From NCBI GenBank assembly GCA_043814765.1, contig JBDRJQ010000029.1:80821-144820 (forward strand): a stretch of 64,000 nt of DNA. Reading direction: 5' to 3'. Of this stretch, positions 26,101 through 26,344 are shown piece after piece. The notes below the pieces were generated by a model. It was not told where the DNA came from. It made no database searches and saw nothing but the letters and a program-made list of their open reading frames with translations. This DNA is from Nanobdellota archaeon. GTDB lineage: Archaea > Aenigmatarchaeota > Aenigmatarchaeia > QMZP01. The translations under genes were made by a program, and so were the position numbers. The first letter of the stretch is position 1, and each line of letters starts with the position of its first letter.

Positions 26101-26166
26101 CCTGTTCATGGTTACATAAAAGGTGAACAGCATGTTTGCCCCTACAACAATAATGGAGGTAAATAA
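23119..26166 (+). CDS. nrdD: Anaerobic (class III) ribonucleoside-triphosphate reductase large chain. It has an N-terminal NrdR-like Zn ribbon plus ATP-cone and an in-frame intein, and it lacks the glycyl-radical tail
   Basis: Start chosen at ATG 23119 (GAGGTAG SD); the track start at 23062 adds 19 implausible residues. NrdD motifs seen: HIHDL, NLTFDW, MCCRL, YTGGTIFH, ITPTFSVCPVHGY. Confidence 0.9.
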   Translation: MKCPFCFDEETRVIDKRESGEKGINRRRRECLSCKKRFTTYERIEGAISKITHIKKRDGQIVEFDQNKITDAIWKAVQAVGNKDKEVAKKASDNVVKILEERFEGKIPEVEQIQDIVEESLIENGLAETAKAYIIYRQKKIQVRDTKKTLIDVIDTISDYLDQKDWRVRENSNEQYSFSGLLLYTAGKVMANYNLTEMYTPAMADAHRAGYLHIHDLSHGVIGYCAGWSLKNLLSWGFGGIPNKVDCKPSKHMSTVVHQMVNYIGCLQMEFAGAQAFSTVDVLLAPFVRADQMTFKQVKQAMQQLIFSLNIPSRWGCFSKDTELLTNKGWMLGKDLEKGDIIATFNKDTEEIEYLPVKEMTKYNYKGKMCRLKNRITDQLVTPNHRILRRIHNYKEGVSESKYVFEEADKLKTKIPLVPLGGKFKGLDLDKDLVKSLAWIISEGTLCKNERIGIHQSFVKNPENCQDIRDSLDSIGVDFDEQIKQSGFTERWDCLRIRMSRPDSRNFYENYFPDYVKSIPDELRNLSTPLARTFIDTYMKADGWYPEGKIYTKNKDDIDAFQEIIAKAGWGSTVLKNKNGIYVIRVIKHNHTQITSIDNEDYDGLVWCPTTDNGTVIVRRKGKVFISGNSQYPFSNLTFDWSIPKDLENEHAIVGGTPQSFTYGDLQEETNMINKAFLEVMLEGDANGRTFSFPIPTYNLTKDFDWDGENANLLFEMTAKYGTPYFQNYIGSNLDPSSIRAMCCRLNINQKELVQRPGHIFAAGDSTGSIGVVTMNLNRLGFEAKDESEFHNKIEHYMNMGKDSLEIKRRVVEKNLKNGLMPYTRRYLGSFSNHFSTIGLVGMNEACLNLIGKDISTPEGKTLTINMLKFMRDVIGGYQQETGNLYNLEATPAESASYRLARADKKMYPNIITSGDKQPFLTNSTQLPVNFGDDVISALEHQNDIQYLYTGGTIFHTFLGERVSSGESCKNLVRKIANNTRIPYFSITPTFSVCPVHGYIKGEQHVCPYNNNGGK
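24067..25005 (+). mobile_element. Intein (313 aa) with a LAGLIDADG homing-endonuclease domain, inserted in NrdD
   Basis: The host sequence SRWG|C...SGN|SQYPFSNLTFDW is restored on excision. Cys1, block B TPNH, LAGLIDADG-like motifs LAWIISEGT and FIDTYMKADGW, terminal Asn with Ser at +1. Confidence 0.85.
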
Positions 26167-26167
26167 T

Positions 26168-26344
26168 ATGGAAAATGAAAAATGCAACAGAGAAACAGAA
26201 GTCTATTCAAGAATAGTCGGTTATTTTAGGCCTATAAAAAATTGGAATGACGGAAAGAAAGAGGAATTCGCACACAGGGTAACTTTTAGCGAAAAGAAAG
26301 CTCTGGAAAATGAAATTAAAACAAAAGTCGCTGTTACCCATTAG
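26168..26344 (+). CDS. Stand-alone glycyl-radical domain of NrdD (58 aa)
   Basis: The sequence TEVYSRIVGYFRPIKNWNDGKKEEFAHRV matches the NrdD C-terminal RxxGY...WNxGKxxE glycyl-radical signature. ATG lies 1 nt after the nrdD TAA, in the +1 frame, with GGAGGT 7 nt upstream. Confidence 0.75.
   Translation: MENEKCNRETEVYSRIVGYFRPIKNWNDGKKEEFAHRVTFSEKKALENEIKTKVAVTH

Follow-up and report, generated by a model that had tools for sequence, protein, structure and literature searches.

A class III ribonucleotide reductase of a Nanobdellota archaeon with its glycyl-radical domain encoded on a separate 58-residue chain

In a 64,000-nucleotide stretch of DNA from a Nanobdellota archaeon (contig JBDRJQ010000029.1, positions 80,821 to 144,820; the whole stretch is referred to here as the window), the nrdD gene of the class III ribonucleotide reductase (RNR) is divided between two consecutive open reading frames (ORFs). 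The first, nrdD-L, encodes a large subunit that has no glycyl-radical domain (GRD). The radical glycine is encoded on a separate, independently initiated and conserved chain of 58 residues, the product of the second ORF, nrdD-S. Comparison of this arrangement with related sequences led us to regard the locus as very probably a real, functional and obligate two-chain class III RNR, in which the radical subunit would be detachable. The positions of the features discussed below are collected in Table 1.

Profile searches showed that the two ORFs are complementary parts of one NrdD profile. The Pfam model NRDD (PF13597) is matched by nrdD-L up to position 525 of 562 (E=2.5e-153), and nrdD-S covers the positions from 526 to 562. 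The NCBIfam model PRK08270 is divided in the same manner: positions 264-647 of 684 are occupied by nrdD-L (E=9e-286), with a score of 949 bits vs. a cutoff of 548, and positions 645-683 by nrdD-S. Apart from an intein and the absent C-terminus, NrdD-L aligns end to end with fused NrdD proteins of Woesearchaeota. The finger-loop cysteines are present, as the IRAMCCRL segment of NrdD-L is aligned to ASCCRL of T. maritima NrdD, and residues M429, C430, C431, R432, and L433 are invariant among 59 aligned homologues. The glycyl-radical motif (RxxGY...WNxGK) is not found in the NrdD-L polypeptide; it is carried by NrdD-S, so that this feature belongs to the two chains together. The cognate radical-SAM (S-adenosylmethionine) activase, NrdG, is encoded next to them. 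For NrdD-S, only NRDD-type models matched in Pfam and NCBIfam, with no Gly_radical or GrcA match at E<=0.01, and NCBIfam release 20 contains no model specific to the stand-alone small protein. A search of the PDB with a 118-aa construct spanning the junction gave no match at E<=0.01; the longer C-terminal half did match. In its barrel profile, its finger-loop cysteines and its activase, the nrdD-L and nrdD-S pair agrees with the class III RNRs; it departs from them in that its radical domain is not in cis.

The first-pass annotation of this DNA had reported that nrdD-L stops without a glycyl-radical motif, that an ATG one nucleotide past its TAA opens a 58-aa ORF with the radical glycine, and that a GGAGGT lies 7 nt ahead of this ATG. 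All three statements hold, both on rereading of the sequence and with regard to the point at which the NRDD match passes from one ORF to the other. The C-terminal end of NrdD-L (CPVHGYIKGEQHVCPYNNNGGK / TPTFSVCPVHGYIKGEQHVCPYNNNGGK) is followed directly by the TAA codon, and the ATG at 26168 opens MENEKCNRETEVYSRIVGYFRPIKNWNDGKKEEFAHRV / MENEKCNRETEVYSRIVGYFRPIKNWNDGKKEEFAHRVTFSEKKALENEIKTKVAVTH, which runs to a TAG stop at 26342-26344. Within NrdD-S, Cys6 is encoded at 26183-26185 and the radical glycine, Gly18 of the RIVGY motif, at 26219-26221; WNDGKKEEF and a C-terminal helix follow. Other in-frame starts of nrdD-S are found further upstream (GTG 26123, ATG 26132, and ATG 26153). The ATG at 26168 is the one provided with the Shine-Dalgarno site, and the corresponding codon is the sole available start in the relative L001. 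Similar Shine-Dalgarno sites, at spacings of 3-10 nt, precede 11 of the 40 long ORFs of the window. As for the large subunit, its reading frame is open from TTG 23062, which was taken as the start in the ORF listing. The likely start is ATG 23119, because the NrdR-type zinc ribbon (MKCPFC...) begins there; this ATG is preceded by AGAGGT. The precursor so defined comprises 1015 aa, or 702 aa once the intein is removed.

The same junction was compared in related genomes. In the closest relative, a Nanoarchaeota member of a different species whose small subunit (P0001) is 80% identical to that of the window, no continuous ORF was found. The stop, the single nucleotide and the ATG recur in five independent assemblies of that species (L001-L004 and L090, originating from ENA, Logan, two NCBI metagenome-assembled genomes (MAGs), and a JGI metagenome). 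The gene order nrdD-L, nrdD-S, nrdG is common to 14 distinct split loci. At 13 other distinct loci, the ORFs overlap or are separated to different extents (Table 1), with frame offsets of both +1 and +2, and in every split locus examined a GGAGG, GAGGTG or AAGGAG lies 4-9 nt ahead of the small ORF. These varied geometries therefore point to a two-gene design and not to a single frameshift rule or an indel. Translational coupling of the two ORFs, proposed in the first-pass annotation, may hold in the window; it is not required in the family, since some relatives have long spacers. The longest of these, a GC-rich insert of about 254 nt (L091, 2738-2991), folds far better than its shuffles (minimum free energy of -87.8 kcal/mol, z=-3.6) and matched no family in a comparison with Rfam. 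A structured RNA and a small mobile element are both conceivable identities for this insert.

A programmed +1 ribosomal frameshift of the prfB type, at AAA-TAA-T, would yield a single fused NrdD from the same DNA. It would be in keeping with the +1 frame that follows the stop, with the Shine-Dalgarno-like GGAGGT immediately upstream of the last sense codon, and with the 1-nt geometry shared by the closest relative. Yet the last sense codon is AAA in the window and GGT in L001, and no slippery site is conserved between them. In L091, whose small subunit is 83% identical to that of the window, the spacer of about 254 nt is full of stops. In other lineages the ORFs overlap by 4-14 nt or lie 38-109 nt apart, with both of the other frames represented, and no such event could join them. 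Moreover, the 7-nt spacing of the GGAGGT suits initiation at ATG 26168. In the light of these data we consider a programmed frameshift very improbable.

Both halves of the split enzyme are abundant in sequence collections, although a look-up for exact matches to the small ORF of the window gave no record. A word-indexed search with the small ORF, conducted over 5.8 billion proteins, returned 44 clusters, all of 43-85 aa, of which 42 are stand-alone; the remaining two are P0042, a piece of a fused NrdD, and P0039, which has a zinc ribbon of its own. Residues V12, S14, R15, V17, G18, Y19, R21, P22, W26, N27, G29, K30, E33, and R37 are invariant in these homologues. An exhaustive phmmer search of 1.84 billion representatives at 50% identity gave 2754 matches, the best 150 of which are nearly all proteins of 41-200 aa. 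When both protein searches were pooled, at least 176 distinct stand-alone radical-domain proteins were obtained, and 172 of the 176 begin with Met. On the side of the large subunit, we inspected the 120 clusters (90% identity) closest to the C-terminal half of the window protein: 56 stop just past the third zinc ligand and 57 are fused. The closest large-subunit relatives (70-76% identity) are all truncated and lack the radical motif. The two-chain class III RNR appears to be widespread in DPANN archaea and to occur also in some bacteria. For nrdD-S compared with L001 and L091, the proportion of nonsynonymous differences (pN) was 0.08-0.15 and that of synonymous differences (pS) about 0.9, with synonymous sites saturated. 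Judged by these values, nrdD-S is under strong purifying selection.

These results bear on two further explanations of the split. A sequencing or assembly indel within one continuous nrdD would place two ORFs in adjacent frames 1 nt apart, as is the case here, and metagenome assemblies do contain indels. However, no canonical CPxCG knuckle is regained by the addition or removal of a single base, and the junction contains about 11 extra residues (NNNGGK/MENEK). The same arrangement in five independent assemblies of another species, the differing overlaps and gaps in 13 other lineages, the 56 truncated large-subunit clusters and the 176 small proteins, mostly Met-initiated, likewise speak against an indel, which we regard as extremely improbable. 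Decay of a broken nrdD into a pseudogene could be expected in DPANN archaea, whose genomes are reduced, and inteins burden both nrdD and nrdG of the window. Against such decay, both ORFs are intact and cover all profile positions between them, pN is low relative to a saturated pS, the catalytic and radical motifs are invariant over hundreds of split homologues, and the activase and ferredoxin genes are kept in synteny; the probability of a pseudogene is, in our judgement, minimal. Between a genuine two-piece RNR and a frameshift or artefact, the alternatives named in the first-pass annotation, the variety of junctions and the abundance of both truncated large and Met-initiated small subunits decide for the former.

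The position of the break was determined from a consensus of the subclass, drawn from 80 fused NrdD proteins of GTDB and 57 fused database proteins. This consensus reads TPTFSVC-x2-HGY-x-GE-x3-CPxCG-x2-TEVYSRIVGY, with Cys, His, Cys, and Cys as metal ligands. The fourth Cys, the second of CPxC, is present in 56 of 56 fused proteins; in the 56 truncated large subunits it does not rank among the six most frequent residues there. The latter read CP[FVYHM]... and end 2-40 variable residues later. An exception is P0305, whose truncated large chain keeps CPKC and whose locus has the order L, S (61 aa), G. Among the stand-alone proteins, 142 of 176 (81%) have a Cys exactly 5 residues ahead of the E in EVY, which is the Cys position of the fused enzymes; the spacing of CG-x2-TEVY in the latter is matched by CNRETEVY in NrdD-S of the window. 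Their commonest N-termini are MKC..., MAKC..., and MSKC..., and the Cys is often residue 3 (MKC...). In the window, NrdD-L holds three zinc-ligand positions (C, H, C), and Cys6 of NrdD-S occupies the homologous fourth position. With the fourth Cys lost from the large chains and a Cys at the same spacing in the small ones, the alignments place the fission inside the second zinc knuckle (CPxC). The first-pass annotation had put the break in a linker after the metal site and had described CPVH as non-canonical. Neither point can be kept, as the break falls within the second knuckle and a C-x2-H pair of ligands is the rule in this subclass (C-x2-H...C-x2-C in 56 of 56 fused relatives). Its remark on a metal site without CxxC pairs is correct in one part, as the second Cys of CPxC is truly missing from NrdD-L, and incorrect as regards CPVH, which is usual.

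From the position of Cys6 and its covariation with the large chain, we lean slightly towards the idea that this residue completes the zinc site in trans and so clamps the two chains together. In two paired loci of bacterial split NrdDs, L087 and L157, the situation is reversed: the large chain retains CPxC and the small chain lacks the Cys at -5. Both chains of these loci bear heptad-like helical extensions, the large one at its C-terminus (...KETKQEELKKEIEKLEEQLV*) and the small one at its N-terminus (MAERSELMIRIEELKGELAEVKG...; L087 4830-5070, L157 2850-3490), and their sequences suggest a coiled-coil tether. The neighbours of L087, TonB-receptor and Por_Secre_tail genes, suggest that this locus comes from a member of Bacteroidota. 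In a Woesearchaeota MAG (L008, JAFGRO010000035.1, about position 4028), a fused NrdD carries a 25-residue insertion at the split point (CPAEVSAEPTSDASITSKGECEKKCEVY), which may be an evolutionary intermediate or a re-fusion. In P. copri NrdD, a structural Zn site is part of the GRD, which is mobile and loses its order when the enzyme is inhibited by dATP (PMC11226230). Completion of the zinc site in trans would fit with the exchange in L087 and L157, with the insertion in L008, and with the mobile, Zn-bearing GRD of P. copri. We also observed that the small chain of L157, of 180 aa, has a C-terminal thioredoxin/NrdH-like CxxC domain. A domain of this type is fused to many clostridial NrdDs.

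For structure prediction, the intein-free NrdD-L was joined directly to NrdD-S (760 residues) and modelled with AlphaFold2 from an alignment of 58 homologues. The mean predicted local distance difference test (pLDDT) score of the model was 83.8 and its predicted template modelling (pTM) score 0.80. The junction block (701-710) had a pLDDT of 63 and the radical-domain blocks (711-740) of 83-85. The prediction includes the strands of the zinc ribbon (671-688) and the hairpin of the Gly loop (713-724). In a Foldseek search the best matches of the model were the class III RNRs 9d3x, 8p23, 4u3e, and 1hk8, with E from 1e-24 to 1e-32. In the model, both pieces are compatible with a normal NrdD fold.

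Several points weigh against an obligate enzyme of two chains clamped by a shared zinc site. The AlphaFold2 input was a concatenated single chain, which forces the two parts into proximity and is no test of the docking of free chains. In a scan of GTDB with the small-ORF alignment, 80 of 80 species-representative loci among the matches listed are fused NrdDs, and the split may be confined to particular lineages. Our view of the genome is the 64-kb window, and any second full-length nrdD elsewhere in it lies outside this view. With regard to the metal site, the His of GEH, located 3 residues before the third ligand, is found in 53 of 56 truncated large subunits vs. 17 of 56 fused proteins; the window has GEQH. 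Judging from this distribution, the His could complete the zinc site in cis. Furthermore, 26 of the 176 stand-alone proteins have a Cys only at -1, and 8 have none.

These last observations belong to a different reading of the two chains, according to which the zinc site would be completed in cis, by the His of GEH/GEQH or by water, and NrdD-S would be bound through the usual Gly-loop and helix contacts, with its Cys in another role. Besides the enrichment of the His, the 34 stand-alone GRDs (of 176) without a Cys at -5 are consistent with it, as are the phage and stress-operon copies described below, presumably paired with four-ligand partners. On the other side, a Cys at the homologous spacing (C-x3-[TC]-EVY) is present in 81% of the stand-alone proteins, and the small-chain Cys is lost in those paired loci whose large chain keeps CPxC. 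The enrichment of GEH could also reflect shared ancestry, and the window has no His at the exact position. We hold completion in cis to be a serious, if somewhat unlikely, competitor of the zinc site shared between the chains.

Stand-alone radical domains of the NrdD type were found also in other contexts. In an archaeal MAG (GCA_028279725.1; L171/L174; JANQNE010000004.1, L174 9630-16000), a 43-aa NrdD-type GRD (MKKVKCEVYSRIVGY...) is encoded by the second gene of an operon. The first is a Fur-family gene that overlaps it by 4 nt, and behind it come four rubrerythrin genes and those for desulfoferrodoxin, a peroxiredoxin, MsrB, and a DsbD-like protein. This stress island (L174) has no nrdD within 10 kb of it; nrdG is located 6 kb upstream. 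Among the 80 best viral loci from IMG/VR (L176-L255), 21 carry stand-alone GRDs that are not beside nrdD, some of them among portal, capsid, and tail genes; further phage or viral examples are included in Table 1. A tblastn search of GenBank phages gave two weak matches, one of which is a 144-aa protein of the ANME virus ANMV-1 annotated as 'anaerobic ribonucleoside triphosphate reductase' (L256 2677-3111). In L229, L244, L255, L231, L170, and ANMV-1, the GRD has its own Cys-rich, zinc-ribbon-like N-terminal extension, which represents a third type of split. The stress-operon and viral contexts parallel those of E. coli GrcA and T4 Y06I, which serve pyruvate formate-lyase, and they suggest a role of the stand-alone domain as a spare part.

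It might then be asked whether the small protein of the window is a GrcA-like spare part only, with a full-length NrdD encoded elsewhere doing the work and the truncated ORF as a side product. Stand-alone NrdD-type GRDs away from nrdD, in the Fur/rubrerythrin operon and on phage contigs, do fit a rescue role for some members. The adjacent large gene, however, is complete save for the GRD, it has dozens of equally truncated relatives (70-76% identity), and it is always followed by the small ORF and nrdG; therefore, the small protein is at least the obligate partner of that gene. In addition, the small chain bears the Cys that is missing from the large one. A role as a spare part only is highly unlikely. 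For the obligate two-chain RNR, by contrast with GrcA, which rescues a full-length enzyme after cleavage by O2, the large chain never has a radical domain of its own.

The division of labour between the chains may be proposed as follows. NrdD-L, which would need splicing of its intein, carries the zinc ribbon, the ATP-cone, the ten-stranded alpha/beta barrel of the NRDD family, to which the finger loop with its Cys belongs, and three of the zinc-ligand positions. NrdD-S carries Cys6 at the position of the fourth ligand, the beta-hairpin with Gly18, the WNDGK motif, and the C-terminal helix. NrdG, with SAM and an electron (perhaps from the neighbouring ferredoxin), would take a hydrogen from Gly18 of NrdD-S. 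The Gly loop of NrdD-S would enter the barrel of NrdD-L beside the finger-loop Cys, as the C-terminal domain does in single-chain enzymes, and a zinc site filled in trans (Cys6 with C/H/C) would hold the small chain in place. The radical would move to the finger-loop Cys and then to the substrate, with catalysis as in any NrdD. Oxygen destroys glycyl-radical enzymes through backbone cleavage at the radical glycine, and the one remedy known so far is GrcA/YfiD, the spare part of pyruvate formate-lyase. After such a cleavage, 58 residues would have to be replaced and not the 1015-residue, intein-containing precursor. We propose only tentatively that NrdD-S is a cheap, exchangeable cartridge sacrificed to oxygen; the idea is drawn from the gene context in other genomes, and we rate it as slightly less probable than even. 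A wider proposal, conceivable though short of probable, is that proteins of the NrdD-S type serve ribonucleotide reduction as autonomous glycyl-radical cofactors and form a general class that had gone unrecognised. These would be activated by NrdG off the enzyme, clamped by zinc or, in bacteria, by a coiled coil, and used as spare parts in oxidative stress, from a Fur/PerR-type operon with rubrerythrins, and in phages that keep up deoxyribonucleoside triphosphate (dNTP) synthesis of the host.

Table 1. Features of the split nrdD locus in the window, junctions in related loci (distance from the large-subunit stop to the small ORF), and further viral stand-alone domains.
Feature	Locus	Position or distance	Strand	Remark
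nrdD-L, class III ribonucleotide reductase large subunit	window	23119..26166	+	Pfam NRDD and NCBIfam PRK08270; without glycyl-radical domain
NrdR-type zinc ribbon at the nrdD-L N-terminus	window	23119..23244	+	Pfam PF22811 Zn_ribbon_NrdR E=1.6e-15, residues 20-61 (TTG numbering)
ATP-cone (allosteric activity domain)	window	23275..23535	+	Pfam PF03477 E=5.6e-21, residues 72-158 (TTG numbering)
Putative intein, 313 aa, in nrdD-L (CFSKDTE...VFISGN/SQYPF)	window	24067..25005	+	Insertion with intein-like ends
Three-ligand zinc-site remnant of nrdD-L	window	26098..26145	+	Cys 26098-26100, His 26107-26109, Cys 26137-26139, then Pro-Tyr replacing Pro-x-Cys
Shine-Dalgarno-like GGAGGT	window	26155..26160	+	Within the end of nrdD-L, 7 nt 5' of the small-ORF ATG
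TAA stop of nrdD-L	window	26164-26166	+	Single nucleotide 26167 before the next start
nrdD-S, 58-aa autonomous glycyl-radical subunit	window	26168..26344	+	Pfam NRDD positions 526-562, E=1.1e-10
nrdG, radical-SAM activase installing the glycyl radical	window	26398..28575	+	NCBIfam TIGR02495 NrdG2 E=1.1e-59; Pfam Radical_SAM; intein-interrupted
LAGLIDADG intein, 497 aa, in nrdG (C...LLHN/TGGEPT)	window	26602..28092	+	Pfam Intein_splicing E=1.2e-19, LAGLIDADG_3 E=2.2e-8; NCBIfam intein N-/C-terminal models
2x[4Fe-4S] ferredoxin, 61 aa	window	28665-28850	+	Pfam Fer4 E=4e-15
DUF1858 protein	window	28855-29079	+	Pfam DUF1858 E=2.4e-17
Junction	L089	-14 nt		Overlap
Junction	L257	-11 nt		Overlap
Junction	L085/L086	-8 nt		Overlap
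Junction	L138	-4 nt		Overlap
Junction	L168	+4 nt		
Junction	L157	+38 nt		
Junction	L156	+58 nt		
Junction	L148	+103 nt		
Junction	L087/L088	+109 nt		
Junction	L091	about +254 nt		Many stops; small subunit 83% identical to that of the window
Phage/viral stand-alone GRD away from nrdD	L170	1492-1692		
Phage/viral stand-alone GRD away from nrdD	L172	4001-4189		
Phage/viral stand-alone GRD away from nrdD	L173	4001-4255		

The gene for the large subunit has two further peculiarities. The first concerns its N-terminus, where an NrdR-type zinc ribbon is joined directly to the ATP-cone; the AlphaFold2 confidence for residues 1-47 is below 50. L085 and the locus of P0305 have NrdR (Zn ribbon and ATP-cone) as a gene of its own just upstream of nrdD, and in NrdD-L of the window the DNA-binding ribbon of the NrdR repressor appears to be fused onto the enzyme. 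The second is the insertion of 313 aa, which is missing from all eight aligned relatives and is flanked by the conserved PSRWG and SQYPFSNLTF. Its first residue is Cys and its last is Asn, with Ser next in the host protein, and its SGN/S end lacks the usual penultimate His. No significant Pfam intein match was obtained for this insertion. The nrdD homologue of L001, which is longer still (1443 aa), gave faint Intein_splicing and LAGLIDADG matches; its length suggests more than one intein in that gene. The intein of nrdG in the window sits ahead of the GGEPT SAM-binding motif. At the junction of nrdD-L and nrdD-S, a split intein with trans-splicing was rejected, as nothing in the ends (CPYNNNGGK / MENEKC) resembles an intein and neither Pfam nor NCBIfam gave an intein match there; an intron was rejected because there is no room for one in a 1-nt gap.

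Downstream of nrdG, the ferredoxin and DUF1858 genes form a pair that is present beside nrdDG also in L001 (7012-7427), L085 (1421-1851), and L089 (5897-6316), that is in four split-NrdD lineages. From this neighbourhood, the ferredoxin may supply NrdG with electrons, and the two proteins together may be an electron-delivery pair for it. Genes for a helix-turn-helix protein, IscS, IscU, and glutamate dehydrogenase follow, and the gene for methionyl-tRNA synthetase (MetRS) lies upstream of nrdD. The gene order of the window is syntenic with contigs of the Nanoarchaeota MAG (L001-L004), from which an origin in a DPANN archaeon is most likely. Between MetRS and nrdD there is an ORF of 507 aa (21368-22891, - strand) with a weak EpsG-family match (E=3e-4, below the cutoff). 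It is missing from the otherwise syntenic L001 locus, where nrdD directly follows MetRS. The GC content of the window is 31-45%, and scans of the window for tRNAs and Rfam families found none.

Single-chain class III NrdDs of known structure (T4, 1H79/1HK8; T. maritima, 4U3E/4COI; P. copri, 8P23; S. thermophilus, 9D3X) share with the enzyme of the window the barrel fold, the finger-loop Cys (AMCCRL vs. ASCCRL in T. maritima), the ATP-cone, a C-terminal zinc site (a predicted one in the window) with RxxGY and WNxGK after it, and NrdG encoded alongside. In contrast to them, the large polypeptide of the window stops past the third ligand, and a separately initiated chain of 58 aa bears the fourth-ligand position, the Gly loop, and the C-terminal helix. 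A small stand-alone GRD, presumably activated by the cognate radical-SAM activase, is likewise found in GrcA/YfiD of E. coli and Y06I of T4. NrdD-S differs from these in that it belongs to the NrdD sequence family and not to the pyruvate formate-lyase type, that it would be obligate, and that, judging from its Cys, it probably contributes a zinc ligand. Only YfiD and Y06I were validated at the time of Andorfer et al. (2021), who considered spare parts possible for other glycyl-radical enzymes (PMC8683613), and in a 2026 review the formate lyases were the sole class of these enzymes with identified spare parts (PMC13450708).

Other RNRs are also encoded by two consecutive ORFs that form an active enzyme, namely NrdJa/NrdJb of class II (Pseudomonas, Thermus phage phiYS40) and NrdA of Aeromonas phage Aeh1. 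Splits in class II and in phage NrdA, with a zinc-finger module on the C-terminal NrdJ piece, have been described, as have nrdD genes with introns or inteins and the fragmented nrdD of Aeromonas phage phiAS4 (PMC9669993; PMC3653736). The split NrdJ and NrdA differ from the present case in RNR class and in break point; what their C-terminal pieces provide is reducing equivalents or the rest of the barrel, and none bears the radical cofactor. With respect to the distribution of functions, the arrangement resembles the alpha/beta RNR of class I, whose large subunit has the catalytic Cys and whose stable radical is kept on another, smaller one (PMC9669993). Yet the radical subunit of class I is an unrelated ferritin-fold metalloprotein with a long proton-coupled electron-transfer path, whereas NrdD-S corresponds to an excised C-terminal loop that would have to enter the barrel by the Cys.

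Tetrahedral Zn sites that are built from ligands of two polypeptides and join them are known from CD4/CD8-Lck (the zinc clasp) and from Rad50 (the zinc hook). The likeness to the proposed site of C/H/C and Cys6 is one of analogy only, as the proteins are unrelated and a 3+1 division of ligands is unusual. A radical subunit of NrdD that stands alone was not described in any paper retrieved by our full-text literature searches; most papers in subscription journals were outside their scope, and an earlier mention is possible.

A radical domain of NrdD on its own chain of 58 residues would mean that, in an essential enzyme, this domain is able to work in trans. NrdD-S would be a minimal and easily made substrate for studies of NrdG activation and radical transfer, and the site it may share with NrdD-L would possibly be the first 3+1 intersubunit zinc site in an RNR. 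There is also a consequence for genome annotation. Automated procedures name both pieces 'anaerobic ribonucleoside-triphosphate reductase' or 'partial'; split genomes may therefore be mis-scored as having a broken nrdD, and length-filtered surveys of RNRs will miss the clade. If a general class of NrdD-S cofactors exists, it would answer the open question of whether repair by spare parts extends beyond pyruvate formate-lyase. The two-chain enzyme itself would give a rationale for how the dNTP supply is protected in anaerobes with tiny genomes that live at oxic-anoxic interfaces.

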